Source of the DNA: a virus
Lineage: Duplodnaviria; Heunggongvirae; Uroviricota; Caudoviricetes
Reading direction: 5' to 3' (one strand)
Virus record (IMG/VR): IMGVR_UViG_2703718774_000012
DNA: 64,000 nucleotides
The notes beneath the pieces are model-generated. The model saw only the letters and a list, made by a program, of their open reading frames with translations. It did not search any database and was not told where the DNA came from. This document shows, in pieces, positions 1-58,885 of this stretch; the stretch's first letter is position 1, and each line of letters begins with the position of its first letter. The position numbers and the translations under genes were made by a program.

Positions 1-106
1 ATTTGCCTGATAATTCCCTTTCCGCCCGTGCCAGCATTCCTTTTAGACTCGCATTCTCTTTTTCAAGAATCTCTATGCGCGCCTGTAACTCAGCTTTCGT
101 TGGCAT
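1..106 (-). CDS. hypothetical coiled-coil protein, N-terminal part only (gene runs off the window start)
   Basis: ATG at 104-106 (minus) opens frame MPTKAELQARIEILEKENASLKGMLARAERELSGK that continues past position 1; absent from ORF track because truncated. Confidence 0.3.
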   Translation of the reverse strand, partial: MPTKAELQARIEILEKENASLKGMLARAERELSGK

Positions 107-770: not shown

Positions 771-1126
771 TTCTTTTCACATTCCTTAGTCCATTTTTCA
801 ATGTTCATTTTGGCAATATCAGTCATTCCATCACCTAAGAAATACTTTTTCCGGTACGTCTTGCACTTAAACCACACTACAACAGCCACCAGCCAGAAAA
901 TAAAAGGCCATACAGCAATACCAACTCCAGCCGCGATAAAGCCCAATAGCCATAAATGAAGCTCTCCAACTTCTGTTTGCGGCAATATTCTTAAAGAATT
1001 AAACAGCAGGCTGAACGAATGGTCGTATGCATTGGCAGTATAAGACATGCAATCCATATAATTAAAGTCATAGCCTGCGGCTGCCGCCCATAATGGGCGG
1101 TCAAGAAAATGTTTTAGTGTCATCAT
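752..1126 (-). CDS. small membrane protein (2 predicted TM helices), basic C-terminus
   Basis: ORF track; hydrophobic stretches LWLLGFIAAGVGIAVWPFIFWLVAVVVWF; start uncertain. Confidence 0.4.
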   Translation of the reverse strand: MMTLKHFLDRPLWAAAAGYDFNYMDCMSYTANAYDHSFSLLFNSLRILPQTEVGELHLWLLGFIAAGVGIAVWPFIFWLVAVVVWFKCKTYRKKYFLGDGMTDIAKMNIEKWTKECEKKWRKKK

Positions 1127-1132
1127 ATAAAT

Positions 1133-1513
1133 TTAAGGTTCAGACCAGTTATCTTCAATAGCAATGCTTAATCTTTGTAGCCATTCTGCTAATTTCAGCA
1201 TTGCTTCTCTTTCGCTTAAACCACGAGGAAAATCATCAAGCGATATTGTTGGCTTGAAGCCCCCGTAATTATCCATTTCAACGGTCAGATTTTGCTCCAG
1301 TACGGTATTCCTTACGCGGCTATTGTGGCGAAGCAAATATACTGAACGTGATTTATTGGTTTTGTGGTCGAGCTGATATTCGGTAAGTATCATCTGGCTT
1401 TTTCCATGACTATTACCTCTCCACATACTTACCCCACTTAATAAAACAACTCCATACGTAGTTGATGATTTTTCCCCACGTAATATAAATATGCACTCCA
1501 GCAGAAAAACCAA
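1133..1513 (-). CDS. hypothetical protein (126 aa)
   Basis: ORF track; operon context only. Confidence 0.4.
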   Translation of the reverse strand: MVFLLECIFILRGEKSSTTYGVVLLSGVSMWRGNSHGKSQMILTEYQLDHKTNKSRSVYLLRHNSRVRNTVLEQNLTVEMDNYGGFKPTISLDDFPRGLSEREAMLKLAEWLQRLSIAIEDNWSEP

Positions 1514-1604
1514 AACCTACAATTACTGAAAAAATCAAAACATTTACTTTTGACATTATAAAACTTCTCTCTGTGTCGTAGGTGATAGAACCATAATTGA
1601 TAAT

Positions 1605-1856
1605 TTAGTGAGTTAGCAGTTCCATTTTTTTGATGATTTCCGCATGAGCATCATCGTTATCAACACTTAGCTCGTTTAATGCTTCTCGCACTACATCAAC
1701 TTCTTCTGGTTGGAAGAAATCATCTCGGTAGTCACCAAATAGAACCGAAACAAGCCTGCCACCGGCAACATCAAGATTGGCGCTAACAGGTGGCTCTTTA
1801 CCATCCTCAAATTCGACTACAAAAGTTATTTTTCCCATCGTTACCACCAGCGACAA
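1605..1856 (-). CDS. hypothetical protein (83 aa, acidic)
   Basis: ORF track; operon context. Confidence 0.4.
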   Translation of the reverse strand: MSLVVTMGKITFVVEFEDGKEPPVSANLDVAGGRLVSVLFGDYRDDFFQPEEVDVVREALNELSVDNDDAHAEIIKKMELLTH

Positions 1857-1920
1857 ATTGAATACAAACCCAGTGCTGCCGCCATCACAATTCCTACCGT
1901 GGTGAATGCTTCAGGCCAGG

Positions 1921-2265
1921 TCATCGTAAAACATCCTCTGCGCTTATCAGTCCGTTTCGCTTCAGGTAGTCCATCGCCTTACCCGGCAATTTACAGTCCG
2001 GCTTCGTTTTCCTCAGTTGCCAGGTTAACTGCTTTACCAGCATGGTTAACTCGTCGACCAGACGCTGATGTCCCACTGGTTTGTATTCATGCAATTTACC
2101 GGCTGGCTCTGCTGCCAGCGATGCCAGTGCGATTTCCAGAACAGCAATATCCATCTTATATGTGCGGATGATGTCATGGTCGATTGTGCCCGGTATACAC
2201 AGTCTCTGTGCTTCAATAGTCTCCTCTGCGTGAGCTATTAACTGCTCTCTGGTAATAGTGGTCAT
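1921..2265 (-). CDS. hypothetical protein (114 aa)
   Basis: ORF track; stop/start overlap with downstream gene at 2262-2265. Confidence 0.45.
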
Positions 2266-2777
2266 GCCGCGTTTCCTTCTTTCTTATTAACAATTACACC
2301 GTCATATATTTCATTAAGGTGCCCTCTCAACTCCATGCGCCTTAATGCAGACAACATGTAATCGCATTCAACCTGCTTATTTCCAGTAAATGGCTTATCG
2401 TCAGGATTACCCCAACAGCAATTACCCTTGGGCCACCCATGTACTTTCCGTACTCTTCCGTTAACAACGTGAAGTAATCCCCAGCCAGGTGGTAAATCCT
2501 CAACTGAAATAATTCCCGGCTCACTAATAAAGAATCGCCAGTCGCCCATGCCAAGTGAGGGATTTTTACGGAAACGCTTTTTTCTATCTGCCAACAAGTC
2601 AGCACGAGAACATTTCGCCTCTATCAGGCATGATGCTGAATTTCTGAATCCCATAGCATCTGGCTGTTCTCCGGTACTGGTTACAGCTATAAAGCGGTCA
2701 TGAAAACAAACCTTGAACCCGTTGCGCTTAAGGAACTTGTACGCAATCTGACAGAGTTCGCGGTGTGTTAACGCCAT
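2262..2777 (-). CDS. hypothetical protein with PD-(D/E)xK-nuclease-like signature
   Basis: Start re-placed at ATG 2775-2777 (MALTHREL...) preceded by AAGGAG 8 nt upstream; motif ...PDAMG...CLIEAKCS resembles D...(E)xK nuclease core; inference from motif only. Confidence 0.45.
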
Positions 2778-2778
2778 A

Positions 2779-3663
2779 TCACTCTCCTTTGATGCGAATG
2801 CCAGCAAGCCAGTTTCTTATGCCGATATATTCAGCGTTCCTGAAACCGCCATTTACATATATAAATGGCAAGCGAAGATTGTGACCATTGACTGCCAGGT
2901 AGTCTTTACAACCCTGTTCGGTGAAACAGCAGGTAACGAATTCATCAATATCTTTCACAGCAACGCGCCGCCATTTTTCTGGTGGCTCTCGAAAGTTTTC
3001 GTGAAGTAGTTCGAGACGACGACTTTGGCGTTTATTGGCTTCATTGCCATCTTCATCAACCCAGACAATCCGGTCATAGTCATAATCAGCATCAACAACG
3101 ATTTCGCGCTTTTGATACACACAAAACATAGGGTCTGACGTTATTCGATTATCCTGTGTTCGAATATTTTCACCGATGATGCCAAACGAATCTGGTGCAG
3201 ATTTTGTCTGCAACTCTTCGATACGTTCAGCCATCGCAGCACACTCTTCAAAGTTGCTTAATGCTTTTCGCTCCCATTCGGCGCATTGTTTTTCCAGTTC
3301 TGCTATGCGCTTACTTCCATCCGCTATTACTCCCTCGTAATATTCACGCTGCTCGTTGAGTTTTGATTTTGCTGCTTCAAGCTCAACGCGCAGCTTCCCT
3401 ACCGTTAGCGCAATATCCTCGTTCTCCTGGTCGCGGCGTTTGATGTATTGCTGGTTTCTTTCCCGTTCATCCAGTAGTGCCAGCACGGTTTCTGGTCCGG
3501 CCAGAAATTTGAAGGCGTTGAGCGCATCAATATCCACACCGTAATCTTTAAGTTCCTGTTCACTTAACAAATCATCATCAGCTGGCAACATTAACAGGCG
3601 TTCCATTGCTGGAATTGCACGTTCCGCCGCCTCACGCAGTGCCTGATAGTCAATCTTGCTCAC
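2779..3663 (-). CDS. Ea22/ead-like prophage protein (294 aa)
   Basis: N-terminus MSKIDYQALREAAERA and coiled-coil region typical of ead/Ea22-like family; paralogous to adjacent gene. Confidence 0.55.
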   Translation of the reverse strand: MSKIDYQALREAAERAIPAMERLLMLPADDDLLSEQELKDYGVDIDALNAFKFLAGPETVLALLDERERNQQYIKRRDQENEDIALTVGKLRVELEAAKSKLNEQREYYEGVIADGSKRIAELEKQCAEWERKALSNFEECAAMAERIEELQTKSAPDSFGIIGENIRTQDNRITSDPMFCVYQKREIVVDADYDYDRIVWVDEDGNEANKRQSRRLELLHENFREPPEKWRRVAVKDIDEFVTCCFTEQGCKDYLAVNGHNLRLPFIYVNGGFRNAEYIGIRNWLAGIRIKGE

Positions 3664-4361
3664 TGGTTGCCTCCTTTTCGAAGCTGGGCGGCGATATCTT
3701 CGAGAACGCCATCAGAGAATGAGCGGTCAAAATCGCCTTCCGGCGCATTAGCCATAAACTCAGTAGAGGTAAGAATCATCCGGGCAATATCCGCGGCGTT
3801 CTTCGCAGTATCATCAATAAAACCAGCTTCCCAGGCAGCCAGCATTCTGTTCGCCACAAAATAAGCGCCTTCCTTGCGTGCTTCAGTCTTCACTTCAGCT
3901 AGAAAAGCATCGGTAGCTGGAGTTTCGCTGTGGTGCAGGGCATCGTTGATAATCATTGCAGCAACTCCGGCCTGCCCTGCATCCGTGACCGACACATGCT
4001 CAAGAGTTACGGCCATTGCGTGTTTCAGCCCGGCGTTCTCTGCCACCAGCGCCGCGAGATTAGTCTCAAGCTCTGCAATTCGACACATAGCATCAATATT
4101 TGTGTCCTCCAGGCACTTAATTTCACCAAGCAGCTCCAGTGCAACCTTTGGGTTGAACGCGGCAACATGACGAGCGTTGTTCTCTGCATTTTTCTGTCCA
4201 TCAAAGCCGGTCCATTTGATAACGTCTTCACATCGTTCATCACCGGGCGTGTGCACCGCATAAGTACCAGTATCCGTCGAAATAAATGCGACCCATTCGT
4301 CTGGTGTTGCCTTTTCTGCCGCCTCACGCAGTACCTGATAGTCAATTGTCATTCTCGCCAT
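3660..4361 (-). CDS. Ea22/ead-like prophage protein (233 aa)
   Basis: N-terminus MTIDYQVLREAAEKA and C-terminus ...AAQLRKGGNQ shared with paralogs; ATGA overlap with next gene. Confidence 0.55.
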   Translation of the reverse strand: MARMTIDYQVLREAAEKATPDEWVAFISTDTGTYAVHTPGDERCEDVIKWTGFDGQKNAENNARHVAAFNPKVALELLGEIKCLEDTNIDAMCRIAELETNLAALVAENAGLKHAMAVTLEHVSVTDAGQAGVAAMIINDALHHSETPATDAFLAEVKTEARKEGAYFVANRMLAAWEAGFIDDTAKNAADIARMILTSTEFMANAPEGDFDRSFSDGVLEDIAAQLRKGGNQ

Positions 4362-4975
4362 CCTTCACAGTTGTAATCACTACAGCCTTCAAAATCATAT
4401 GGGCTGTACTGCCAGGTTATTTTTCCGCAATGCGGACAATTCCAACGCACCTTCCCGCTTCGCGACTTCTTTCTTCTGTTCTGCTCTTCCAACCAGTCAG
4501 GCATGACCAAACCTGCGCCCTGAACCATTGTTCTGCGGTTAAAGTTATTGATATTGAACGTCCGACGCTTTGCTGCATCAGCAATGGAAAATGGCAACCA
4601 AACTATTCCTGGTTCGTTTTTGTTGGCGACGCTAAAGATGGTCGCTTTACTGAAGTCATCTGTTGGCAATCCACCGTGTTGAAGCCAGTAAACATCGTTG
4701 CCGTTCCAGCTACCTTTTTTGTAGGCCACATACGCAGTGCAATCTGACTCAATCAGGCTTTCTGTAGGGATGTACTGGCAATCAACGTGCCACACAGCCA
4801 TTGCATCCACACTATCGGCACAAACAGGCTGATCGATATCTCGACCACAATTCCAGGCTTTTTGGGCTTCTTCCTGCGTGTAAACATGTGCTCGATCGAT
4901 ATCAGAACTGTAACCATTGCCGTTATGGCAATGGAATGAGGCGTTATTACCCACAGTTTCACGCAAGCACATCAT
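4349..4975 (-). CDS. hypothetical protein with C-terminal Cys-rich (CPHCG...C..C) zinc-ribbon-like region
   Basis: ORF track 4349..5029; start moved to in-frame MM at 4975/4972 because upstream part overlaps preceding gene; start uncertain. Confidence 0.4.
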   Translation of the reverse strand: MMCLRETVGNNASFHCHNGNGYSSDIDRAHVYTQEEAQKAWNCGRDIDQPVCADSVDAMAVWHVDCQYIPTESLIESDCTAYVAYKKGSWNGNDVYWLQHGGLPTDDFSKATIFSVANKNEPGIVWLPFSIADAAKRRTFNINNFNRRTMVQGAGLVMPDWLEEQNRRKKSRSGKVRWNCPHCGKITWQYSPYDFEGCSDYNCEGWRE

Positions 4976-4989
4976 GTAAAAACGGTTAC

Positions 4990-5229
4990 TCACTGGTTGC
5001 CTCCTTGGCGGAGTTGCGCTGCGATGCACGAAAAAAAAGACTCCCGAGTGTGACAGTTAAGAGCTGGTGCGAACGCCGCGTTAAGAACGGCGGAATCACA
5101 GCCGTCATCAATATAGAGCGCAATTTTTTTCTCCAGGCGCGCTTTGGCTTCCTGCAACTGCATACCCCGGCACGCACGCGGGATATAATCAGCAATTTGA
5201 GCGATAGCTTTTTCGTTCTGTTTAAACAT
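4990..5229 (-). CDS. truncated Ea22-like paralog (79 aa, C-terminal homology only)
   Basis: Ends ...CIAAQLRQGGNQ like the 233-aa paralog; same junction sequence tcactggttgcctcc follows both genes; contains an A8/T8 homopolymer. Confidence 0.4.
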   Translation of the reverse strand: MFKQNEKAIAQIADYIPRACRGMQLQEAKARLEKKIALYIDDGCDSAVLNAAFAPALNCHTRESFFSCIAAQLRQGGNQ

Positions 5230-5425
5230 GCTTCACCTCGATAGGCTTGATGGTGTCTAACAGCAGTCGGCGGCGCGTATTTTCTGCAAAATGGCGGCGT
5301 CCAGTTTCTTTGTGGTAAAACTCGTTTTTGCCAACGACCCACATCCGCTCTGTTTGGTGCAGTTTTTTTACCTTCGGGCCATCTTTGGTGATCACGGTAC
5401 CGGTATGGGTTTTTACGATTGTCAT
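5222..5425 (-). CDS. small hypothetical protein (67 aa)
   Basis: ORF track; 4-nt overlaps with both neighbours. Confidence 0.4.
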   Translation of the reverse strand: MTIVKTHTGTVITKDGPKVKKLHQTERMWVVGKNEFYHKETGRRHFAENTRRRLLLDTIKPIEVKHV

Positions 5426-6300
5426 TCCACTACCTCTTCGAATTTCAACTCCGATTGGTCACCCCAGATTTCACATGATTCGGAACACGAACCAGTATCA
5501 AACCGCTTGGCCAGCACCATCGCCTGATACAAATTTCTGTAGTCACTGTCGGCATACATTCTGGCAATCCCGTCAAGCGTCAGGTGGCCACGGTACATAA
5601 CGTCTTTACCTGTTCTGCGATGACCATCCCTGACGTGTTTGCCTGTAACCAGTTCATTAAAAACCCGCATCAGACCTGGTTCGTCTTTACATGCAAGCCC
5701 CAGCTTTTGCGTTGACTTTTTGATGCAAAAAACACAGTTCCCGAGGTGCTCCGGGATTTGCAAATCAAAAGGTTGTTTTCGCCACCACCGGATAACATCC
5801 GACTTATCAAAATCTGACAGTTCGGCAAGATACCGGACGCCCGGTTTCGGTTTCAGCCTACGGGGTTCGTCCGCACGAATACCGAGCCATGTGATGTAAT
5901 TCCCTCGCCCAAAATGGTCATCGCAATATTTCGTGAAAGGGGTGAGTTTTAGCCTGTCGGTACAGAACGCGCCGCCGATGTATGGCGTACCGTACTTTTT
6001 AACCATGTCCATAAACGGTTTAAGCACCGGCATTCGCGTCTGAATATCCTTTGGTTCCCATTCCGTATAACCATTTGGCTGCCCAAGTTCTGGATTTATA
6101 TCGACCTGCAACACCGTTAGCGGTACGTTCCAGAACTTCACAACCTCACGAATAAAGCGATACGTCAGAGGATGTTCACAGCCGGTATCCATAAAAATGA
6201 AATGGACGCTAGCGCCAGCTTTTCGCTGTGCTTCCATCAGATGAACGAGATAAGCCGATGTTCGTCCACCTGAAAAGCTGACGACTTGATGCATACTCAC
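5422..6300 (-). CDS. phosphoadenosine-phosphosulfate (PAPS) reductase family / PP-loop protein
   Basis: N-terminal PP-loop-like SFSGGRTSA and overall similarity to PAPS reductase-like phage proteins (recalled family pattern). Confidence 0.65.
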   Translation of the reverse strand: MSMHQVVSFSGGRTSAYLVHLMEAQRKAGASVHFIFMDTGCEHPLTYRFIREVVKFWNVPLTVLQVDINPELGQPNGYTEWEPKDIQTRMPVLKPFMDMVKKYGTPYIGGAFCTDRLKLTPFTKYCDDHFGRGNYITWLGIRADEPRRLKPKPGVRYLAELSDFDKSDVIRWWRKQPFDLQIPEHLGNCVFCIKKSTQKLGLACKDEPGLMRVFNELVTGKHVRDGHRRTGKDVMYRGHLTLDGIARMYADSDYRNLYQAMVLAKRFDTGSCSESCEIWGDQSELKFEEVVE

Positions 6301-6303
6301 GGT

Positions 6304-6882
6304 TTATTCCTGAATGCGCTTAAACTCGATTACCCATACCAACGGGTTAGATAGCCAGTTATCCTGCCCGTAAATACTGCGCCAGATATCACCAAAACCA
6401 ACGCGATAAACAGCTTCAGATGGCGTAATCTTGTACGTCGCCGGAGTTGCGCCTTCTGCTTTAGCATCTGCCTCGCTCATGTCATGCAGCCGTTCCACAC
6501 GCACGTCGGTAATTTCCAGAAGAATGCGCGATGCCCAGCGCGGCATGTGAATTGATGGCGTCCACTTTTCTGATACTGGTTTATTACAAACCTCGACCGG
6601 AACCCGGTGCGTTTGTTCTGTCCAGGAGTTACGCACGCTTGCGCGATAAACCAGCGTTGCGACGTCCGTCGCTTTGCCATGTACCCGGTAGGTTTCGCGA
6701 ACCCAAATACGATCGCCCGGTTGACCATATGGACAATGCTTAGCAAGCAACTCTGCGGCCACTGCCCGTCCATAGAATTTTTCTTCAACAATCCTGCGAG
6801 TCTGTGTTTTATTCCCGCCAAGAATTGCCCGGACCATCTCATCGTTGAAAATCATGCCGCGCTCTTTCACTTCGCCTTTCAT
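6304..6882 (-). CDS. ASCH-domain-like protein
   Basis: N-terminal MIFNDEMVRAILGGNKTQTRR resembles ASCH G-x-K-T-x-T-x-R motif; recalled pattern. Confidence 0.5.
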   Translation of the reverse strand: MKGEVKERGMIFNDEMVRAILGGNKTQTRRIVEEKFYGRAVAAELLAKHCPYGQPGDRIWVRETYRVHGKATDVATLVYRASVRNSWTEQTHRVPVEVCNKPVSEKWTPSIHMPRWASRILLEITDVRVERLHDMSEADAKAEGATPATYKITPSEAVYRVGFGDIWRSIYGQDNWLSNPLVWVIEFKRIQE

Positions 6883-22447: not shown

Positions 22448-22534
22448 TGGTGGGGAGTGATGGAGTCGAACCACCCGAGTCGCAATGACAGTAGATTTAC
22501 AGTCTACCCCGCTACCCCTACGGACTAACTCCCC
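22448..22534 (-). tRNA. candidate class-II tRNA, Tyr-like (anticodon GUA), 87 nt
   Basis: Perfect 7-bp acceptor stem, anticodon stem-loop GTAGA-CTGTAAA-TCTAC, long variable arm GTCATTGCGACTCG resembling E. coli tRNA-Tyr, T-arm GGTGG-TTCGACT-CCATC, 3' ACCA; D-arm irregular. Confidence 0.45.
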
Positions 22535-22539
22535 TAAAG

Positions 22540-22614
22540 TGGCGATGGTGGGTGGATTCGAACTACCGACCAGTTGGTTAACAGCCAACTGCTCTACCGC
22601 TGAGCTACACCATC
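22540..22614 (-). tRNA. tRNA-Asn (anticodon GUU)
   Basis: 75-nt cloverleaf GATGGTGTAGCTCAGCGGTAGAGC-A-GTTGG-CTGTTAA-CCAAC...TTCGAAT...CACCATCGCCA on minus strand. Confidence 0.8.
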
Positions 22615-23267: not shown

Positions 23268-23296
23268 TATTACACTAATAAATTTATTAGAGCAAT
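23268..23296. promoter_or_regulatory. composite operator: perfect consensus site ATTGCTCTAATAAATTT (minus, 23280-23296) overlapped by inverted partial site; candidate promoter of tRNA-ban operon
   Basis: 17/17 match; TTGCTC -35, 17-bp spacer, TAATAT -10 on minus strand; overlaps the last codons of the methyltransferase gene. Confidence 0.6.
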
Positions 23297-26200
23297 ATAA
23301 CCAAAACGTCATGAGCTACACCTCGAGTGTCCCCCTTACAAGACACAGAACGTCTGGCAAAAAGAGGTTCCACTCTGAAGCCACTGTCATGATAAAGCTC
23401 TCTGATGTTTGGCGCGCCACTGTTAGTAATGAGAACCTTTGCACCTCGACGATGAGCATCCGTCAACAGAGACACCAGGCGTTTTTGCTCTTCAAACTTA
23501 AAGTCATGACCGGAATAGTTCGTGAATCCCTCTGTATTTGGAAGCGGTTCATACGGCGGATCGCAAAAGATGACATCTCCTTCTCCGGCAGCTTCAATCA
23601 CCGCTGCAAAATCACCGCATACAAACTCAGACCGCCCTTCCGCACCGAGGAAGGCTTCCATCTCCTGTAATGGGAAATACGGAGTTTTATACTTCCCATA
23701 ACCGACATTGAACTCACCGGCCTGGTTGTAACGCGTCAATCCGTTAAAACAATGTCGGTTCAGGAACAAAAACGCCGCTGCGCGATGTAAATCATCATAG
23801 ACTTGTTTGTTAAACGCATTCCGTACTGCCAGGTATCCTTCCTGTGTGTTGTAGTCCTGGAAGAAACGATGTGCCAGAGTGATAAGTGAATGCGCCTCGC
23901 GTTGCAGAGTCTTGTAAAAGTTAATCAGGTCAGCATTCACATCATTTAGCAGATTTTCCTGGTATCCGGCATTCATGAAGACAGCTCCGCCACCAACGAA
24001 AGGTTCAATCAGGCGCTTCCCTTCTGGCAAATAGCGAAAGATTTGTTCCAGAACACCAAATTTTCCACCAGCCCATTTGAATATGGACCGTTCGAATTCT
24101 GCCGCTGGTTTAACTTTTCGCTCTTTTGTTTCACTTCCTTCTTTCTGCCGACATACGGCCTTAGTAATCCGATCGCCAATCCAGCGCATTACTGGTATTG
24201 CCATACTATTGCCGATCGCTTTGTAACGCGGTCCGTCAGCTGCAAGCATTGCGGCCTCTTCTTCGCTTAAATCTGGATAGTGATTGTGCAGATATGCCAG
24301 TTCATCTGAATTAACTTTTTTACGCTTTTCCGTAGGGATCAACGTATGCCAATCAGGAAAACCTTGCAGCCTTTCACATTCGACAGGGGTAAGACGGCGC
24401 ATTCTACCGTCGCCGAGCAATACAATTGGTGCTTCATGGTTACATGTCAAAGTTGGTGCCGAATTATCGGTTTTTATCTCAGCCCCTCCTTGCCCATGTG
24501 CCATGGCAATTATGTTTGTATCATCGCAAGTTCTGATAGCGATGTTTGAAGTATATCTGGTAGTTTCCTTCCCCTCGCCTCTGCTCGGCGCAATATTCCG
24601 GCGCACGCCTTCGAACTCAAAAAGTACCGTTGCGGGATCGAGATCTGTTCGAGCACTTGCGACAACAAACACGCGTCGGCGTCGTTGTGCCACTCCGAAG
24701 TATTGGGCATCAAGGATTCTCCAGGCCACTTTTCGCTGCGGTCCATAAATACAACCACACTGCGGCCACTTTGGAACATGGCAACCGGTTTTGCCATCCC
24801 ACCGCCAGAACGCGTTGCTTTTTCCTGATTCAGGTCGATCACCTGGTTCAAATGGCACATCTTCTCCAGCCAATCCGGCAAGGAAACATCCGAAGGCGTT
24901 ATCTGCCGATGACAAGACTCCTGGGACATTTTCCCAGACGATAACGGCTGGTTTGAGAAATGACTCAGCCCGTTTGTCGTCAATTGCATTTGCAAGCTCC
25001 ACATACTTTAAAGTTAGCGCGCCACGCTCATCATCAAGCCCACCACGTAATCCCGCGATACTGAATGCCTGACAGTTATGGACCACCGCACCATTGAGGA
25101 TATAGGAATGATCACCTTCGACTTCTATGTTGTATACAGTATCTAGGCCTACCGATTTAAACTCTTTGACTGTTCGTAAAAGCATTCCATGAGCCAATCT
25201 TGATTTACGTGACAATTTCTGCGGGCAGATTGTTACCTGATAATAATTCCGTTGATTTACCACGCGATCCTCGATCACTTTTTTGGGCTCAACTTCAATA
25301 AAGCTGACCGAAGAAACATAACCACAAGTCTGTGACAACCCCGCAACGCCCCAAGCAAGCGCAGAACTAACACTATTAATTCTAAATCCCGCTTTACCAC
25401 TTGGTGTCCCATCAGTATCAAGATAGCCTTGTAAAAACACATGACGCAATGGATGCGACATCACCCATGCAGGGATACGCTTAGCATGGCTTAACTCGCC
25501 AAAATGTTCATTAAGCCAATTGGCATAACACGTATCATTCAAGGTTACTTTGATGCTCCCTCGGATTTCGCTTGCCACGGAAAATATGTTTTCTGGTATG
25601 CGGCAATGAAACTTTCTCAATTTCTGGCAATTTATGCCAAAAACAACCGCCTTCTTAGATTTACCTCTCCATCTCCTAATATATCCATCGCCAACATAAG
25701 CGCCCGCAAGATACATAGCCTGTTCTTCAGACAAGAACCGAGAACAAATATCTGGAAATGCAATATTGAAATTAGTTAGAGCGCACCATTGATATCCCGG
25801 CATATCACATGCTGCTCGCCATTCCGGTTCAGACAACAACTCTCTCTTAAAATATGTGCCATTTTTCCGGGTGTTTTGGGCTTTCCACCGAACAGCCAGG
25901 AAGGGATGGTCATTGGTTGTTCTTATACCTAAAGGCTGCCCAACGGCATTAAGTAACCCCGTATTAGCTATTTTTGAACCAACTCTTTTTACTTGTTGTA
26001 ACCGCCCGAGATGACTGACTACGTAATCACCAGGGCAAACATTTTCTATTGGTTTATAGCCATTTTTACAAAGAACCATATGCCCCGCGGTAAAACATGG
26101 TGTTCCCCCGACGAGCACGTCAGGGGATTCGATTTCCCCAGCCAAGACTTTTTTGGCAAGTTTTTTCATGTCGCCAAGGTTGGCAACATGGGGCCAGCGG

Positions 26201-26328
26201 AGCGCAAGAACGGCCGATGGAAAAGGCTCGATTTCAGCAAACCACGCCGGACGCATACCCAACGGTTCCCAGGCAATACTCGCGGCTTCAATTCCACTGC
26301 AAACAGATCCATAGCACAGCTCTTTCAC
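23287..26328 (-). CDS. dmt: bifunctional DNA methyltransferase: N-terminal C5-cytosine MTase (intein-interrupted) + C-terminal Dam-like N6-adenine MTase
   Basis: C5-MTase motifs: [10 protein letters not shown] (I), GGTP|...|CQAFSIAG (IV, split), VWENVPGV (ENV), [20 protein letters not shown] (X); Dam-like part [28 protein letters not shown]. Confidence 0.8.
25075..26097 (-). other. intein (341 aa) with LAGLIDADG homing-endonuclease motifs, inserted in C5-MTase motif IV
   Basis: Begins CFTAGHMVL, block B TTNDHPF, two LAGLIDADG-type motifs [10 protein letters not shown] and [11 protein letters not shown], ends [21 protein letters not shown] followed by +1 Cys; removal restores [12 protein letters not shown]. 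Confidence 0.75.
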
Positions 26329-29790: not shown

Positions 29791-29943
29791 TACCCTTCCT
29801 TCCAACCGGCTATGTTGGCCGGTTTATTCAACTTATCCACAGCATAGATCCAATAAACAGATCCTAAAGAGAACCCAGGAAGATCCAAAGAAGATCCCGG
29901 ATCGCTGTAAGCCGCGCCATTTCTGGCCTGAAATGGGATCAAC

Positions 29944-30048
29944 ATTGACTATACGCGATTTTATGTTGACTGTGCACGATTTATTGTTGACTGCACGCGA
30001 TTTATTGTTGACTATATGCGACAGAAACATTGACTGTACGCGATTTTA
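29944..30048 (+). repeat. five direct ~19-bp iterons (TTGACTRTRCGCGATTT) upstream of repA: origin / incC-like
   Basis: Read directly: ttgactatacgcgatttta, ttgactgtgcacgatttat, ttgactgcacgcgatttat, ttgactatatgcgacag, ttgactgtacgcgatttta at ~21-bp spacing. Confidence 0.7.
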
Positions 30049-30123
30049 GAGCCTGACTATTCACAGTTGTTGATAACTGCAATCCAGATGACGCCAGGCC
30101 GCGCCACATATGGAGAAACCACG

Positions 30124-31008
30124 ATGCTGGAAGAAAATAAAGGCTTCCTTAGCGTTGAAGAAGTTGCAGGAAATACAGGAGAAATCCACAGCCTGAAACC
30201 CAATAACAATAGCACTATACAACCCATTGCTTTGTTGCGCTTAGGTGTGTTTGTGCCAACCTTAAAATCTACCAATGTGGCACTACGTCGCGGATCGTCA
30301 GTTACTACAAACACAACGAACGCAACCGAAGAACTATCAAGCCTCAAAATTGTTGAGCAGGAAGGCTATGAGGGAATTGAAATTCATGGTCCACGCCTGG
30401 ATATGGATACTGATTTTAAGGTGTGGGTGGGCATAACCTCCGCGTTGTTTGACTACGCACCTGATGATGACGGCATAATCACCCTGCCATTCTCCGAGTT
30501 TGCCGATCGATGCGGCTATCCACGTAAGCGCCTTTCAAAGGCGTTCCGTAAAAGTATTGATGACTCTCTGACACGCATTCAGCAGACAGTTGTCAAATTC
30601 CGCTTCCCGGCGGCAAAAGGTCATCTCAATAACATTAACGTCAACTTGTTGGCATATAGCAGCCTGAATACCGAGCTTGATGTTATCGAGATCCAGCCGC
30701 AGAAACAGCTATCTGAACTTTACTATGTTGACTATAAGCGAATCCTGAAGCTGAAGATGCTGGATAAGCTCGGGCGCAAAGAGACGGCCAAGGTACTGTA
30801 TACATTCTTTGAGGCTCTACCCGCCAACCCGGCACCTGTCAGCATTGAGCGCCTTAGAGCAAGGCTTAATCTCAAATCATCCGTTAGCGTGCAAAATAGC
30901 GTTATCAGAAAAGCCATGAAAGATTTGGAAGCTATTGAATATCTTAAATTTTCAGAGATAAAAAACGGCAGGAAAATCGGCTTTCAGATCCATAAGCGCA
31001 ATCCATAA
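30124..31008 (+). CDS. repA: iteron-binding replication initiator RepA (P1 RepA-like)
   Basis: Start MLEENKG with GGAG RBS; QPIALLRLGVFVP and GPRLDMDTDFKVWVGI match recalled P1 RepA; flanked by iterons on both sides. Confidence 0.8.
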   Translation: MLEENKGFLSVEEVAGNTGEIHSLKPNNNSTIQPIALLRLGVFVPTLKSTNVALRRGSSVTTNTTNATEELSSLKIVEQEGYEGIEIHGPRLDMDTDFKVWVGITSALFDYAPDDDGIITLPFSEFADRCGYPRKRLSKAFRKSIDDSLTRIQQTVVKFRFPAAKGHLNNINVNLLAYSSLNTELDVIEIQPQKQLSELYYVDYKRILKLKMLDKLGRKETAKVLYTFFEALPANPAPVSIERLRARLNLKSSVSVQNSVIRKAMKDLEAIEYLKFSEIKNGRKIGFQIHKRNP

Positions 31009-31016
31009 TATTGACT

Positions 31017-31275
31017 ATATGCGATAGCGAGAAGTTGACTATAGGCGACATTCGTTGACGCTGGTGGATTTTTGCTGGCGTCAATATTCTGCAAGTCGCT
31101 ATTGAGATGGCTTTTAGGGTCATTTCATCGCGTATAGTCAACGTTTCTCCCGACAATATCTTACATAGTCGATCTTTGGTGGAGTTAAATCGACTACAGT
31201 CAACTTTTGACTGTAGTCACATCGCGCATAGTCAACTATTCACATTAACTTTCGCGCATAGTCAACATTTGCGCG
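31017..31275. repeat. downstream iteron cluster in both orientations (incA-like copy-control region)
   Basis: ttgactatatgcgata, ttgactataggcgaca, and inverted cgcg(t/c)atagtcaac copies. Confidence 0.6.
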
Positions 31276-31300
31276 GTTCTCATCAAGCAGTGGTATTGAT

Positions 31301-31636
31301 ATGCAAGAAGAGAAACAACACTACCTCTACGTTCTGGTGCCGGAGAACGGAGATACTTTTAAAATCGGCATTTCATGTGGTCCATTGGCACGGTTTAAAG
31401 GGCTACAAGTGAGTCCCGATTTTGCGCTTTCACGGGTCTATCGTGGTACGCGTTTGGCAATGGTTAATCTTGAGCGGGCTTTACACGCAACCTTTTTCCC
31501 CTGGAATGCGCCGTGGGAGAAAAGCGCCGGTGGCGGGCATACTGAATGGTTTACACGAGAGTGTCTTGATAAGGTTTTGGCTCATATCGAATATCTAAAT
31601 GATATGTGGGGAGGGATTCTCGAGCGCATTAAGTAG
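31301..31636 (+). CDS. hypothetical protein, possibly GIY-YIG/T5orf172-like
   Basis: HYLYVLVPENGDTFKIGIS resembles GIY...YIG-type motif; weak. Confidence 0.4.
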   Translation: MQEEKQHYLYVLVPENGDTFKIGISCGPLARFKGLQVSPDFALSRVYRGTRLAMVNLERALHATFFPWNAPWEKSAGGGHTEWFTRECLDKVLAHIEYLNDMWGGILERIK

Positions 31637-31705
31637 AATGATTTACTTCAGCGTCCAGTAGATGCTGCTCGCTCTTTCGAAAAAGAACTGGATGTTACTT
31701 CTATC

Positions 31706-32110
31706 GTGACTTTCAAAGATGACGCAGGAATGAGGGACGTGGCTTATGTCTCCATATCTGGCTATGAACCGGACGCGATCCGCGCTCAATGTGAATTGCT
31801 GAAAGCAATGTTTATGCTTCGGACTAAATATCCCTGGGAGACAGGGCGGGTGTGCTTCCCTATGGAAGAGTTAACCGCCACCATTGATTCTCAGCTTTAC
31901 CACGATAATCCAGAGAAGTTTTTTAGCCTTTTAGCCGGTAATGGGCTTAACTGTGTGTCCGGGCTGGGGCGAAGTAGAATCCAACATGCCTCGCTCTTCG
32001 GTCCCTTCTTTTACGATCGACACGGGTACTTTGAGGCTGAACTTCCGGCGCTTACGCGTGCTATAGATACTATCGATTTCGAACGATTATTCGCTGCTCT
32101 TAGCAAATAA
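31706..32110 (+). CDS. hypothetical protein (134 aa)
   Basis: ORF track; followed by strong terminator. Confidence 0.45.
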   Translation: MTFKDDAGMRDVAYVSISGYEPDAIRAQCELLKAMFMLRTKYPWETGRVCFPMEELTATIDSQLYHDNPEKFFSLLAGNGLNCVSGLGRSRIQHASLFGPFFYDRHGYFEAELPALTRAIDTIDFERLFAALSK

Positions 32111-32116
32111 CACTGA

Positions 32117-32138
32117 TGCCCCTGAACGGGGCTTTTTT
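32117..32138 (+). terminator. rho-independent terminator
   Basis: GCCCCtgaacGGGGC followed by TTTTTTGT. Confidence 0.6.
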
Positions 32139-32278
32139 GTGCCTTTCTTGTAACTCTCAATCGTGCAAAATGAACAAAACATGCAGAGAATGCCATGTAC
32201 AAGCATCTACGCATACATTATTATTTTATGCAGCATTTTTAATTAAATTCAAAAATACAGCATAAAGGATGACTTTCG

Positions 32279-33475
32279 ATGAGTGATTCCAGCCAGCTTC
32301 ACAAGGTTGCTCAAAGAGCAAACAGAATGCTCAATGTTCTGACTGAACAAGTACAGTTGCAAAAGGATGAGCTACACGCGAACGAGTTTTACCAGGTCTA
32401 TGCGAAAGCGGCACTGGCAAAATTGCCTCTACTGACTCGAGCGAACGTTGACTATGCCGTAAGTGAAATGGAAGAAAAGGGTTATGTTTTCGATAAACGC
32501 CCTGCTGGCTCTTCAATGAAATATGCGATGTCAATTCAGAACATCATTGACATATATGAACATCGCGGAGTGCCAAAATACCGGGATCGCTACAGCGAAG
32601 CGTATGTGATTTTCATCTCCAATCTTAAAGGCGGTGTGTCAAAAACTGTATCGACGGTTTCTCTGGCGCATGCAATGCGTGCTCACCCTCATCTTCTGAT
32701 GGAAGATTTAAGGATTCTGGTTATTGACCTTGATCCGCAATCTTCAGCAACGATGTTTTTAAGCCATAAACACTCTATTGGTATCGTAAACGCAACATCT
32801 GCACAGGCTATGTTGCAGAATGTAAGCCGTGAAGAGCTGTTAGAGGAGTTTATTGTTCCTTCTGTTGTACCTGGGGTTGACGTTATGCCTGCGTCGATTG
32901 ACGATGCCTTTATTGCATCCGATTGGAGAGAGCTGTGCAATGAGCATCTACCGGGTCAGAACATCCATGCTGTCCTGAAAGAAAATGTGATTGATAAGCT
33001 GAAGAGCGATTATGACTTTATCCTCGTTGATAGTGGTCCTCACCTTGACGCCTTCCTGAAAAATGCTTTGGCCTCGGCCAATATACTGTTTACACCTCTG
33101 CCGCCAGCAACTGTCGATTTCCACTCATCGCTTAAATACGTTGCCCGCCTTCCTGAGTTGGTGAAACTCATTTCGGATGAAGGCTGCGAGTGCCAGCTTG
33201 CGACTAACATTGGTTTTATGTCCAAGTTGAGTAACAAGGCAGATCATAAGTATTGCCATAGCCTGGCTAAAGAAGTGTTCGGTGGGGATATGCTCGATGT
33301 CGTCCTCCCTCGCCTTGACGGTTTTGAACGTTGCGGCGAGTCTTTTGACACTGTTATTTCAGCTAACCCGGCAACGTATGTTGGTAGTGCTGATGCATTG
33401 AAGAACGCGCGAATTGCCGCGGAAGATTTTGCTAAAGCAGTTTTTGACCGTATTGAATTTATCAGATCTAACTGA
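32279..33475 (+). CDS. parA: plasmid partition ATPase ParA (type Ia, SopA/P1 ParA-like)
   Basis: Deviant Walker A NLKGGVSKT, long N-terminal HTH-type extension, 398 aa; followed by parB. Confidence 0.85.
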   Translation: MSDSSQLHKVAQRANRMLNVLTEQVQLQKDELHANEFYQVYAKAALAKLPLLTRANVDYAVSEMEEKGYVFDKRPAGSSMKYAMSIQNIIDIYEHRGVPKYRDRYSEAYVIFISNLKGGVSKTVSTVSLAHAMRAHPHLLMEDLRILVIDLDPQSSATMFLSHKHSIGIVNATSAQAMLQNVSREELLEEFIVPSVVPGVDVMPASIDDAFIASDWRELCNEHLPGQNIHAVLKENVIDKLKSDYDFILVDSGPHLDAFLKNALASANILFTPLPPATVDFHSSLKYVARLPELVKLISDEGCECQLATNIGFMSKLSNKADHKYCHSLAKEVFGGDMLDVVLPRLDGFERCGESFDTVISANPATYVGSADALKNARIAAEDFAKAVFDRIEFIRSN

Positions 33476-33491
33476 GGAGTAAGAAACCCCC

Positions 33492-34493
33492 ATGTCAAAG
33501 AAAAACAGACCAACAATTGGGCGAACCCTTAATCCTTCAATATTAAGCGGATTTGATAGTTCTTCAGCCTCTGGCGATCGAGTCGAGCAGGTATTCAAGT
33601 TATCAACTGGTCGCCAGGCCACATTTATTGAAGAGGTAATACCTCCGAACCAGGTAGAAAGCGATACCTTTGTTGATCAGCATAACAACGGGCGTGACCA
33701 GGCATCTCTTACGCCAAAATCATTAAAAAGTATCCGAAGCACTATTAAGCATCAGCAATTTTACCCTGCAATAGGTGTTAGACGGGGTACAGGGAAAATT
33801 GAAATTTTGGATGGTTCCCGGCGTCGAGCTTCTGCCATCTTAGAGAACGTAGGGTTGCGGGTTTTAGTCACGGACCAGGAGATCAGCGTTCAGGAAGCGC
33901 AAAATTTAGCGAAAGACGTTCAGACAGCATTGCAGCACAGCATTCGAGAAATAGGTCTGCGTTTGATGCGAATGAAAAATGATGGGATGAGTCAGAAGGA
34001 TATTGCAGCCAAAGAAGGGCTGTCTCAGGCTAAGGTCACGCGTGCTCTCCAGGCAGCGAGTGCTCCGGAAGAATTAGTCGCCCTTTTCCCTGTGCAGTCG
34101 GAATTAACCTTTTCGGACTACAAAACGCTTTGTGCTGTTGGCGACGAAATGGGGAACAAGAATTTAGAGTTTGATCAGCTTATTCAAAACATATCCCCGG
34201 AAATAAACGACATCTTATCCATTGAAGAAATGGCCGAAGATGAAGTTAAAAATAAAATCCTGCGCTTGATAACAAAGGAAGCCTCACTACTCACGGATAA
34301 AGGTTCTAAAGATAAGTCCGTAGTTACTGAATTATGGAAATTTGAGGACAAGGATCGCTTTGCAAGGAAGCGCGTGAAAGGCCGTGCATTTTCTTATGAG
34401 TTTAATCGACTTTCAAAAGAGCTACAGGAAGAACTCGACAGGATGATTGGGCATATCCTTAGAAAGAGCCTCGATAAAAAGCCGAAGCCTTAA
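33492..34493 (+). CDS. parB: partition protein ParB (centromere-binding)
   Basis: ParB-box-like GVRRGTGKIEILDGSRR; HTH region; 333 aa; 16-nt gap after parA. Confidence 0.8.
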   Translation: MSKKNRPTIGRTLNPSILSGFDSSSASGDRVEQVFKLSTGRQATFIEEVIPPNQVESDTFVDQHNNGRDQASLTPKSLKSIRSTIKHQQFYPAIGVRRGTGKIEILDGSRRRASAILENVGLRVLVTDQEISVQEAQNLAKDVQTALQHSIREIGLRLMRMKNDGMSQKDIAAKEGLSQAKVTRALQAASAPEELVALFPVQSELTFSDYKTLCAVGDEMGNKNLEFDQLIQNISPEINDILSIEEMAEDEVKNKILRLITKEASLLTDKGSKDKSVVTELWKFEDKDRFARKRVKGRAFSYEFNRLSKELQEELDRMIGHILRKSLDKKPKP

Positions 34494-34497
34494 ACTT

Positions 34498-34582
34498 TCG
34501 CCATTCAAATTTCACTATTAACCTACTGTTTTTAAAGTAAATCCATCTAAAATTTCAAGGTGAAATCGCCACGATTTCACCT
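34498..34582 (+). promoter_or_regulatory. parS centromere-like site (heptamer ATTTCAC and hexamer TCGCCA boxes around an AT-rich IHF-like spacer)
   Basis: tcgccattcaaATTTCACtatt...tttttaaagtaaatc...TGAAATcgccacgATTTCACc immediately downstream of parB. Confidence 0.6.
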
Positions 34583-44315: not shown

Positions 44316-44807
44316 ATGAGAAAACTATTACTACCGTTATTATTTATGGCTGGGACTGTTAATGCAGCATCAAGCGTGAAGGAGATTTGTACCGATTATA
44401 CGAAATACCTTGGGCACGTTTACGGCTTTGCTGTCAGTCAAGACGAATCCATGCGCAAGAAGTTACTGTCAGATATGAAACGTCTTAAACTTTCTGAAGC
44501 GATGGTGCAGCAAGAACTATATAAAGTCGCAACCAACGAAAATGCTAAATATCAATATTCTCGCCTATTAAATCCCGACGCAAACGAGATCAATCGAAGC
44601 ACTTTCGATTATATGGTAAAGGCATGCGAAACCGCTCCTGATTTTGCTATCCCTAGCTGGGGTGTGCTGGTGGCGAGCAATGCCGTTAATAAAGAAGATG
44701 TTGGAAGAAATGGCATTGACTCAATAAGAAATGCCCCAGGAATGCGCCATCAAAACGTACAGGGTACGCTTGAAGAACGAGCCAGGGGGCCGGGTGTAGC
44801 CCCATAA
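44316..44807 (+). CDS. secreted protein of unknown function (signal peptide)
   Basis: Start MRKLLLPLLFMAGTVNAAS with GGTGAGG RBS; AT-rich gene; C-terminus carries PGMR..VQGTLEERARG motif also present in the tape-measure protein. Confidence 0.45.
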   Translation: MRKLLLPLLFMAGTVNAASSVKEICTDYTKYLGHVYGFAVSQDESMRKKLLSDMKRLKLSEAMVQQELYKVATNENAKYQYSRLLNPDANEINRSTFDYMVKACETAPDFAIPSWGVLVASNAVNKEDVGRNGIDSIRNAPGMRHQNVQGTLEERARGPGVAP

Positions 44808-44895
44808 TTTAATAAATAATATTAAATTCTCTGGGCATAGTGGATCTAACAATATGGACTATGCCTATAATATCTAAAAACAAAAGGATAAAAAT

Positions 44896-45402
44896 ATGAA
44901 ATTGTATAAGTCATTGTATAGCTTTTTATTAATGTTCTCTTTTCTGCCATTATCAGCAATGGCAGGTTCTACCGTTTGGACGGTAGGAGGTGAGCAAGGG
45001 TGGAGAGAAATCTCTGCAACCAATGACGATGGTTACACAATTAACTTTTCCTGTGATGCTGGAGCAAGGGAAGGTTCAGAAGATCATATCGCTGGAAGAA
45101 ATTTGTATGTAAGCGGAGGAAAAGAGAATGCCGATTTTTCTACACGCGACACAATATCACGTAAAGCAGATGTAATTACTTTAATTGTTGGCCCGGATAG
45201 TTTTAATATTGGCACGCAAAACACTGCTCCTAATCGTAGGGAATGGTATTCATTTTGGAAGGCAGTGTCATCTACAAATGAAAAAAAAATAGATGTATAT
45301 ATCGGTTCGAGTCGAATCACATCATTCACTCTGGATGGTATTTCCAGTATTTATACAGAAGCTAAAAATGACGGGTGTTTAAAACAAGATGACGGTGAAT
45401 AA
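44896..45402 (+). CDS. secreted protein of unknown function (signal peptide)
   Basis: MKLYKSLYSFLLMFSFLPLSAMAGS; contains A9 homopolymer in coding sequence. Confidence 0.5.
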   Translation: MKLYKSLYSFLLMFSFLPLSAMAGSTVWTVGGEQGWREISATNDDGYTINFSCDAGAREGSEDHIAGRNLYVSGGKENADFSTRDTISRKADVITLIVGPDSFNIGTQNTAPNRREWYSFWKAVSSTNEKKIDVYIGSSRITSFTLDGISSIYTEAKNDGCLKQDDGE

Positions 45403-46573
45403 AGTGAAGGATATTAAAAAACTTGCACTTGGCTCAGTAAGCGATCTCTATAATAGAGATTCAAATATTACCTGGCGTGATAATTTAAGTAAAATCAAAA
45501 TGCCAGGATATACATCGGCAAGTGATTTATTAAAATCAGAATATGCTTCTAATAATTTGGTTAGACAGTTGGCAGAACTGCAAAAAAACGCAATCATTCC
45601 ATCGTATAGAGAACATATGGCAAACTTGCAAGAACAGTTAAGAATAGGGCGGCTAGCTCAAGAACAAATAGCAAGATTGAATTTGCAATCGTTACTTAGT
45701 GATTCTGTTAAAAAACAGCTTGCGAACATGACGAGCTTGAGAAGAATAAATAGCAAGCATCGTGAATTTCTTGAAATTCTACAGAAACAGGCCAAGGTTT
45801 ATCCCCCGCATGATGCAAATAAATACATTCAAATGCTAAGGAAGCAGGCAGAAATTGCTATGCCGTTACGAAACCAGTTCGAGATGCTTAATAAGCAAGC
45901 TGGTTTAAATAACATGCAAGCAATACTTAATGAATTGCGACAAAATGTAAGTCATAAGATAGATTTAAACAATGAAATAAAAGAATCATTAAAACAATAT
46001 ACCCTAGCGCAAAAGGCTTCATTACATCAAATAATGGAGCAAAGTCTTTCATCAATTGCACAGGCTTATGTCGAAGGTGCTATTGAAACATCTCACAACG
46101 AAAGTGATGTTCAAGACAAAGGATTAAATAAATCCAGTCCGACGTTCATTGATTCATTTAAGTCGCTCCCTCACCCGCTTCAGTTTATTATTATGTGGCT
46201 TTTAACAGAAGTGGTGCTTGGCGCTATTGCTGATTATGCAAAAGAACAAATCTTATCGCAAATACACAAGACAGAATCATATTCTGTATCCCTATATGAG
46301 GATGCACCAATATCAAAACAAAAATTAATTAAAGAAAACACAGAAATTAAGTGGGAAGATCTCAATGGTTTTAGGTTTATAACTGGTGATAACGTAAGAT
46401 TACATGTCAGTCCTTCTTTAAATAGTGAAGTGATTGAATGCATTGGCAAAAACACAATTGTTGCTATTTTAGATAAGAAAGATCGTCAATGGCTTTACGT
46501 GCAGGTTAAATCAGGGGATGAGTTTATTACTGGTTGGATTACACGAACATACACAAAGCCTCTTAAGGCTTGA
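45389..46573 (+). CDS. membrane-anchored protein with coiled-coil region and C-terminal SH3-like domain
   Basis: Internal TM LQFIIMWLLTEVVLGAIADY; C-terminus ...VRLHVSPSLNSEVIECIGKNTIVAILDKKDRQWLYVQV..GWI resembles bacterial SH3. Confidence 0.45.
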   Translation: MTVNKVKDIKKLALGSVSDLYNRDSNITWRDNLSKIKMPGYTSASDLLKSEYASNNLVRQLAELQKNAIIPSYREHMANLQEQLRIGRLAQEQIARLNLQSLLSDSVKKQLANMTSLRRINSKHREFLEILQKQAKVYPPHDANKYIQMLRKQAEIAMPLRNQFEMLNKQAGLNNMQAILNELRQNVSHKIDLNNEIKESLKQYTLAQKASLHQIMEQSLSSIAQAYVEGAIETSHNESDVQDKGLNKSSPTFIDSFKSLPHPLQFIIMWLLTEVVLGAIADYAKEQILSQIHKTESYSVSLYEDAPISKQKLIKENTEIKWEDLNGFRFITGDNVRLHVSPSLNSEVIECIGKNTIVAILDKKDRQWLYVQVKSGDEFITGWITRTYTKPLKA

Positions 46574-46703
46574 ATTTTATCTCCGCATCTTCGGATTGGG
46601 TGTTGATGACGATGTGCTACTTGAAGCACTTGAGTTGTTTTAACGTAGTATCTGAAATGTGTAGACTGACCGGTAACAAATGACAACTCGTAGAATCGGT
46701 TAA

Positions 46704-58842: not shown

Positions 58843-58885
58843 AAGGATAAAGCCATCGATAGAAATATTGATGGCTTCATGTACT

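Follow-up and report, generated by a model that had tools for sequence, protein, structure and literature searches.

The dmt locus and its insert

We analysed an insert in dmt, the DNA methyltransferase gene of a P1-type phage-plasmid represented by the IMG/VR record IMGVR_UViG_2703718774_000012 (Caudoviricetes), using a stretch of 64,000 nucleotides from this record, hereafter the window. The dmt open reading frame (ORF), called at positions 23287-26328 on the minus strand, starts with a GTG codon that overlaps the stop codon of hrdC/rdgC and encodes a precursor of 1013 amino acids (aa) followed by a stop. In the order of translation, and all on the minus strand, the precursor comprises a 77-aa N-terminal flank (N-extein, 26098-26328), the 341-aa insert (25075-26097), the remaining part of a C5-cytosine methyltransferase (C5-MTase) domain, which forms the first part of the C-extein (24094-25074), and a Dam-type N6-adenine methyltransferase domain (23377-24075). 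The N-extein contains C5-MTase motif I and the first half of motif IV, terminating with GGTP; the C-extein resumes with CQAFSIAG, of which CQAFS completes motif IV, and continues with ENVPG, QRRRRVF, a target-recognition region of the short type (24400-24585) and GNSMAIPV. Profile searches assign the flanking exteins to the C5-MTase family (PF00145) and then to the Dam-type domain (Pfam MethyltransfD12, PF02086; TIGR00571 dam). An earlier note on this DNA had described motif IV of the 1013-aa protein as broken in exactly this way, by 341 residues at 25075-26097, and the arrangement was reproduced to the base. The plus-strand reading of the same interval was ruled out, its translation being full of stops, and the chance ORFs on that strand within the insert (e.g. 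25504-25779) are without supporting signal.

The insert, corresponding to precursor residues 78-418, opens with CFTAGHMVL and closes with GAVVHN followed by Cys; it has a calculated mass of 38.3 kDa and an isoelectric point of 9.4, and its predicted organization is that of an intein in which a HINT splicing domain is split by a LAGLIDADG endonuclease domain. All the features that the note had listed, namely, the initial Cys, a TxxH block, two LAGLIDADG motifs and the terminal GAVVHN followed by Cys, were found. Block A is represented by Cys1 (codon at 26095-26097), which is predicted to make the nucleophilic attack that initiates splicing, with Pro as the -1 residue, and block B by TNDH, a TxxH motif at intein residues 61-64 (25906-25917). 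The first LAGLIDADG motif, LAGAYVGDG (residues 130-138; 25684-25710), includes Asp137, the predicted catalytic acid, and the second, LQGYLDTDG (residues 222-230; 25408-25434), includes Asp229, the predicted second catalytic acid. Block F (residues 320-334; 25096-25140), with VYNIEV at residue 321, corresponds in the alignment to block F/G of the Spl DnaX mini-intein (7cfv), and block G, VVHN (residues 338-341), which together with the +1 Cys occupies 25072-25086, is covered by the match to the intein_Cterm profile. The splicing and cleavage residues C1, T61/H64, D137, D229, H340, N341 and C+1 are all present, and the +1 Cys is at once the predicted nucleophile of the C-extein and the catalytic residue of motif IV (PCQ) in the C5-MTase.

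Among profiles, Pfam LAGLIDADG_3 matches intein residues 221-284 with 34.2 bits (E-value 3e-8; cut-off 22.5) and NCBIfam intein_Cterm scores 25.9-28.9 bits (cut-off 15.6), accompanied by weak matches to models of intein-containing ribonucleotide reductase, GyrA, RFC and DnaB. The sequence-only search against the PDB was weak, the matches being to the Spl DnaX mini-intein (E-value 0.0015) and PI-PkoII (E-value 0.024). The AlphaFold2 model of the intein, built from 11 homologues (mean pLDDT 92.1, pTM 0.89), was compared with the PDB using Foldseek, and the top matches were PI-SceI (several entries), TliVMA, PhoVMA, PI-PfuI and PI-PkoII, with E-values from 1e-16 to 4e-10, TM-scores of 0.53-0.63 and sequence identity of 11-16%. 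The free-standing LAGLIDADG enzymes I-SceI, I-AniI and I-OnuI appear among the lower matches (E-values 8e-5 to 5e-3), and mini-inteins as well as the Prp8 intein are also matched. The modelled secondary structure of residues 124-267 fits the doubled alpha-beta-beta-alpha-beta-beta-alpha fold of LAGLIDADG enzymes.

Conceptual removal of the insert rebuilds motif IV, as the note had proposed. The Pfam DNA_methylase profile matches the precursor in four pieces (104.9 bits) and the conceptually spliced protein in a single stretch that spans the junction (125.8 bits; residues 8-135, profile positions 5-119), and motifs I, IV (PCQ), VI (ENV), VIII (QRR), IX and X are all intact and in order in the spliced sequence. 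Calculation gives a precursor of 113.1 kDa, a spliced Dmt of 74.8 kDa and an intein of 38.3 kDa, the last two values agreeing with the earlier estimates of ~74 and ~38 kDa. The G+C content of the intein (42.7%) differs from that of the N-extein (54.5%), the C-extein (48.3%) and the window as a whole (47.2%), indicating that its composition is foreign to dmt.

Alleles with and without the intein

Alignment with the Dam protein of phage P7 (672 aa) and the Dmt protein of phage P1 (754 aa), the comparison with intein-less homologues that the earlier note had suggested as a check for precise insertion, opens one gap of exactly the 341 intein columns, and motif IV is uninterrupted in both proteins. 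At the DNA level, megablast against phage records recovered dmt matches at 96-99% identity. The intein carriers among these records are OP279344 (named phage P1), Ro157c2YLVW and RCS47, in which dmt is 98-99% identical to that of the window; P7, reference P1 and other phage records match dmt minus exactly the intein segment, and the empty site of the P7/P1 alleles reads GTCGGGGGTACGCCT up to the insertion point and TGTCAGGCATTCAGTATC from there on. These alleles bear directly on the reading in which these 341 residues belong to the methyltransferase family as a native accessory domain and are not a mobile element. Their position in frame is the single point in favour of that reading; against it, alleles of 96-98% DNA identity are devoid of exactly these residues, the G+C content differs from that of the flanks, the fold is that of an intein-endonuclease, and elements of the same type are found at the same dipeptide in unrelated C5-MTases (see below). 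We consider the native domain ruled out, with a negligible residual probability.

Two observations concern the P1 records themselves. OP279344.1, which is deposited as 'Escherichia phage P1 isolate del res del mod', has dmt with the intein, and reference P1 (c1-100 mod749::IS5) has it without, so that laboratory or engineered 'P1' stocks differ at dmt. Around dmt residue 74, the reference P1 sequence (AF234172) reads VWGTPCQ, as opposed to VGGTPCQ in all other alleles, a Gly-to-Trp change in a laboratory strain that lies three residues ahead of the motif IV Pro-Cys.

In PLSDB, 129 plasmids contain the 1023-bp intein DNA at 98.5-100% identity, nearly all of them non-mobilizable P1-type replicons, the bulk of which come from Escherichia (114, including E. 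albertii and E. fergusonii), with a further 14 from Salmonella and one from Shigella. Among complete E. coli genomes, the intein is present in 152 of 5426 (~3%) and the empty site, scored as a full-length match to a 100-bp probe across it, in 225, such that ~40% of the P1-type dmt alleles in these genomes are invaded. The intein-bearing protein goes by the names 'Dam family site-specific DNA-(adenine-N6)-methyltransferase', 'DNA cytosine methyltransferase' or 'Dmt', and an intein is annotated in none of the inspected plasmid and phage records of this 1013-1095-aa protein.

To characterize the flanks, 12 alleles with the intein and 7 without it were compared across a region reaching from 1100 nt upstream of the insertion point to 480 nt past it. 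The only extein sites fully linked to the intein are positions -1, -4 and -7 and eleven positions from +24 to +160. The former, all synonymous, define a putative 5' co-conversion tract (26098-26104, minus strand) and separate all sampled intein-carrying from intein-less alleles by a silent difference, GGA ACA CCA versus GGT ACG CCT. The latter define a putative 3' tract (24915-25074, minus strand), from which one intein-carrying allele, L090, departs, being in the intein-less state from +24 on, as a recombinant with a very short 3' tract. Beyond the linked tracts, the polymorphisms in hrdC are common to intein-carrying and intein-less alleles, and short and long target-recognition regions each occur both with the intein and with the empty site. 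Linkage confined to such short flanks is the pattern expected of break-initiated gene conversion, that is, of homing, although it would not amount to proof of endonuclease activity. All 12 sampled intein copies are intact ORFs, and their 26 polymorphic sites, 13 synonymous and 13 non-synonymous, include none on a motif residue.

An alternative to homing by an active enzyme is that the intein splices but its endonuclease is inactive, the element persisting through vertical inheritance and ordinary recombination at a late stage of the homing cycle. This would be in line with the very low diversity across the 129 plasmids, with purifying selection that is detectable only to a modest degree, with the extensive recombination of P1-type plasmids evident from mosaic blocks and independently assorting target-recognition types, and with the decay of some relatives described below. 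However, the Asp residues of the two LAGLIDADG motifs are intact and conserved, as are the motif positions around them, no sampled copy is disrupted and the endonuclease domain has no excess of non-synonymous changes. Furthermore, linkage of the flank markers extends no farther than 7 nt in the 5' direction and 160 nt in the 3' direction, a decay that fits break-initiated conversion better than random crossovers, and ~40% occupancy on many backgrounds suggests active spread. We regard an inactive endonuclease as a minor possibility, albeit the only rival reading that carries appreciable weight; a LAGLIDADG endonuclease that is active, or was so until recently, appears to be the best explanation of the sequence data.

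The host gene itself varies independently of the intein. The target-recognition region has been swapped for unrelated longer segments in the P1 reference and Ro157c2YLVW as well as in the allele L098, and at least three unrelated versions of it exist in P1-type dmt, with exteins of 672, 754 and 862 aa. These versions assort independently of the intein and would imply differing cytosine-methylation specificities. The host genes are full-length in 10 of the 12 sampled intein-carrying alleles. Damage outside the intein was observed in two intein-carrying alleles: in that of NZ_CP010146 (L092), the N-extein is interrupted by the nonsense codon L62*, and that of NZ_CP100503 (L095) is truncated at the Dam end, beside an IS200/IS605 transposase gene.

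Related inteins at motif IV and known systems

A word-indexed search recovered inteins of 46-53% identity, over their full length or the retained part, in other PF00145 proteins from Mannheimia haemolytica and metagenomes, along with relatives at 29-32% identity and a mini-intein without the endonuclease; in those with intact junctions, the insertion lies between P and C(Q/T). A tblastn search against phages added five phages or phage groups with this arrangement, namely, Mannheimia phage 587AP2 (gene 35), Propionibacterium phage B22 (gp50), the Asteriusvirus jumbo coliphages (A4_120), EBPR siphovirus 2 (gp44) and Pseudomonas phage Lana (gp71). In a scan of one genome per species, full-length relatives at the motif IV site were found in Pseudomonadota, Clostridia, Chloroflexota, Bacteroidota, Actinomycetota, Spirochaetota, lineages of the candidate phyla radiation and one Desulfurococcales archaeon, the weaker matches being to inteins of ribonucleotide reductase and other proteins. 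Finally, a phmmer search of 1.84 billion cluster representatives yielded 186 clusters at E-values of up to 1e-30 and 1571 at up to 1e-10. The context xxP^C...N^CQxxS (carets mark the intein boundaries) is present in at least 119 of the best 148 clusters, a lower bound given that the heuristic boundary finder mis-set some boundaries, and Pro is found at -1 in 127 of the 144 clusters scored. Thus, the intein is not the peculiarity of one phage-plasmid that it had been taken for: its family fills the motif IV site across many bacterial phyla, and the P1 dmt intein is one branch of a large, apparently undescribed intein family.

Sequence conservation within this family follows the predicted functional residues. 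Every homologue with a preserved N-terminal junction begins with Cys1, and the block B His is conserved across the alignment; G132, Y134, D137 and G138 are invariant, and D229 and G230 are conserved in at least 90% of the sequences. The scorable splicing and cleavage residues are kept in homologues of 29-53% identity. Some relatives are decayed: of two metagenomic sequences, P0009 combines D229N with a terminal NN in place of HN and P0015 ends with AKN, which fits later stages of the homing cycle in other lineages. In Mannheimia phage vB_MhS_587AP2 (L005), a homologous intein with 48% identity lies in a C5-MTase at 1264-3584; the C-extein is without motifs IV-VIII, the host gene is split into two ORFs, and an annotated HNH homing endonuclease gene directly follows the intein-bearing gene.

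Several known systems are comparable. The PI-SceI intein (Sce VMA1), its archaeal VMA counterparts, PI-PfuI and PI-PkoII are likewise built of a HINT domain into which a LAGLIDADG endonuclease with two motifs is inserted; they have in common with the dmt intein Cys1, the TxxH motif, the terminal His-Asn and the +1 Cys, as well as the placement where the host protein has a conserved catalytic site. The dmt intein is more compact (341 aa versus 360-540 aa), resides in the DNA C5-methyltransferase of a phage-plasmid rather than in an ATPase, polymerase or ribonucleotide reductase, and has, unlike them, Pro as the -1 residue. With respect to the host protein, the closest precedents are the mycobacteriophage DNMT-1/2 methylases, which carry inteins and are classed in the N6_N4_Mtase family (Kelley et al., 2016; PMC5050341), and a published actinophage DNA methylase intein (Gosselin et al., 2023; PMC9957025). 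Similar to the dmt intein, these are endonuclease-bearing elements in orphan phage DNA methyltransferases, with a patchy distribution and evidence of horizontal transfer and within-gene recombination, and tblastn aligns the dmt intein with those of the cluster F mycobacteriophage 'DNA methylases' at ~27% identity. By contrast, the dmt intein interrupts the PC dipeptide of motif IV in a C5-cytosine methyltransferase (PF00145), whereas the mycobacteriophage inteins occupy a different site, and its hosts are phage-plasmids of Enterobacteriaceae, not actinophages.

The other motif IV inteins, from B22, Asteriusvirus, EBPR siphovirus 2, Lana, Mannheimia and bacteria, are 27-56% identical to the dmt intein and occupy the same position, xxP^C...HN^C(Q/T)xxS. 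No intein is annotated in the inspected phage records of these relatives. Unlike them, the dmt intein lies within a bifunctional C5-MTase and Dam fusion and is polymorphic in a single population of very closely related plasmids, where homing would be directly observable. The suggestion that such an intein is undescribed held in one respect and not in another: the literature searched, with subscription journals and intein catalogues outside its scope, contained no description of a P1 dmt intein or of any intein at C5-MTase motif IV, but the element itself is abundant in public records. In principle, the finding is unsurprising, the dmt intein being a well-behaved intein in a class of host proteins already known to harbour inteins.

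Proposed splicing and homing, and the function of Dmt

The proposal that the insert is an intein with a LAGLIDADG endonuclease is backed by the profiles, by its presence and absence relative to the P7 and P1 alleles, by the structure model and by the homologues at the same site, and we consider it highly probable that a canonical class 1 intein, endowed with a homing endonuclease of the LAGLIDADG type, resides as a selfish element in the dmt gene of P1-type phage-plasmids. Several points weigh against this interpretation. The Pfam Hint_2 match (28.1 bits) falls 0.3 bits below its cut-off of 28.4 and that to the Intein_splicing profile lies far under its own, and block F has Asn in VYNIEV where many inteins have Asp. 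Pro at -1, which is the norm in the motif IV intein family, is poorly tolerated by several commonly used inteins in engineered systems. With regard to homing, the co-conversion tracts are explicable by ordinary homologous recombination too, with no need for endonuclease-driven conversion, and the ratio of non-synonymous to synonymous polymorphism in the intein (pN/pS ~0.29, 12 copies) is a weak estimate, with only 0-15 differences per 1023 nt. Finally, the searched literature contained no experimental demonstration of splicing or cleavage for any intein at the motif IV site.

From the sequence, we infer the course of splicing and cleavage as well as the effect on methylation. Translation of dmt would yield the 113-kDa precursor, in which the HINT domain would fold and Cys1 would attack the Pro77-Cys78 bond in an N-S acyl shift; the thioester would then be transferred to the +1 Cys, cyclization of Asn341 would free the intein, and an S-N shift would produce the 74.8-kDa Dmt with motif IV (GGTPCQAFS) intact. 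The freed 38-kDa intein would cut intein-less dmt around the junction of GGGGGTACGCCT and TGTCAGGCATTC, which could take place when two P1-type genomes share a cell, and repair templated by the invaded allele would transfer the intein together with short stretches of flanking extein.

Because the +1 Cys is the catalytic nucleophile and the two halves of motif IV lie 341 residues apart in the precursor, C5 methylation probably requires splicing, the precursor remaining C5-inactive until then, as judged from the known architecture of C5-MTases and inteins. The C-terminal Dam domain, by analogy a separate fold, probably works with or without splicing. The function of the Dam part of Dmt in methylation of the P1 pac site is established, and P1 depends on this domain for it in hosts that are dam-negative (PMC12707154). 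In the P1 and P7 annotations, the C5 activity of Dmt is given only as 'perhaps'. A predicted internal late promoter annotated in P7, LPdam2, is present in the window at 24299-24317 (minus strand) with two mismatches, 3' of the intein and 5' of the Dam domain; if functional, it might permit a Dam-only product independent of splicing.

One possibility is that the insert no longer splices, that the C5 half is inactivated and that the fusion is kept solely for its Dam domain. The tentative status of the C5 activity would agree with this, as would the nonsense codon in the N-extein of the intein-carrying NZ_CP010146 allele, which indicates that the C5 half can be lost, and the -1 Pro, which may be unfavourable to splicing. 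Yet the splicing residues are intact in 12 of 12 copies, the C5 motifs I, IV, VI, VIII, IX and X of the exteins are preserved, most of the sampled intein-carrying genes (10 of 12) are full-length, and the -1 Pro context is kept in more than 100 diverged clusters, which would not be expected of a dead insertion. We therefore hold this scenario to be very improbable. Another possibility is that splicing is conditional, depending for instance on zinc, temperature, the redox state or how far the phage cycle has advanced, and serves as a switch on C5 methylation, Dam activity being constitutive. Conditional splicing is documented for other inteins (zinc, DnaB), the dmt intein sits at the catalytic Cys of a precursor that is probably C5-inactive, and with 11 cysteines in the intein (including C1, C10 and C21) and the additional +1 Cys, a regulatory disulfide is conceivable. 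However, the sequence holds no specific sign of regulation, ~60% of P1-type dmt alleles manage without the intein, and insertion at a catalytic nucleophile usually reflects conservation of the homing site rather than function, which makes a regulatory switch improbable.

Outside dmt, the window differs from P1 in several respects. An extra tRNA-Tyr(gta) gene (22448-22534, minus strand) lies between those for tRNA-Asn (22540-22614) and tRNA-Thr (22368-22443); reference P1 and OP279344 have only the Asn and Thr genes there, and Ro157c2YLVW shares the Tyr gene. The replication and partition region (29928-34548), which encodes a Rep3-type initiator, ParA and ParB, has no megablast match to P1 (OP279344), indicating that the replicon and partition module differ from those of P1. 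Four further blocks are likewise without a megablast match to P1 (OP279344), at 1-6826, with two Ead/Ea22-like proteins and a PAPS-reductase-like protein, at 20432-21527, at 44456-46674, which includes an ORF with a sub-threshold SH3_3 match, and at 57354-60153, in the tail-fibre and invertible-segment region. Such unmatched blocks are typical of the mosaicism of the P1 family.

The dmt intein leaves the general understanding of inteins unchanged, but has a number of practical and biological consequences. Hundreds of plasmid and phage records that give plain 'Dam family methyltransferase' or 'Dmt' are to be corrected, and the presence of a seemingly intact intein in ~3% of complete E. coli genomes is relevant wherever strains are assumed to be free of inteins or homing endonucleases. 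The predicted endonuclease would represent a new LAGLIDADG specificity, and an intein family with a -1 Pro and a +1 Cys-Gln context could interest protein engineers. For P1-type phage-plasmids, invaded and empty alleles that coexist at 96-99% identity, with co-conversion tracts around the insertion point, would constitute a natural phage-plasmid homing system. In a broader reading, which we regard as unlikely to hold in full, motif IV is an unrecognized major intein niche, extending over at least 186 clusters, many phyla and several phage lineages; E. coli and Salmonella host a live homing system in which ~40% of alleles are invaded; splicing in the family proceeds naturally behind a -1 Pro; and C5 methylation may be gated by splicing, separately from Dam methylation, in the life cycle of the phage-plasmid. 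If this is the case, splicing of Dmt may gate anti-restriction protection or epigenetic marking.

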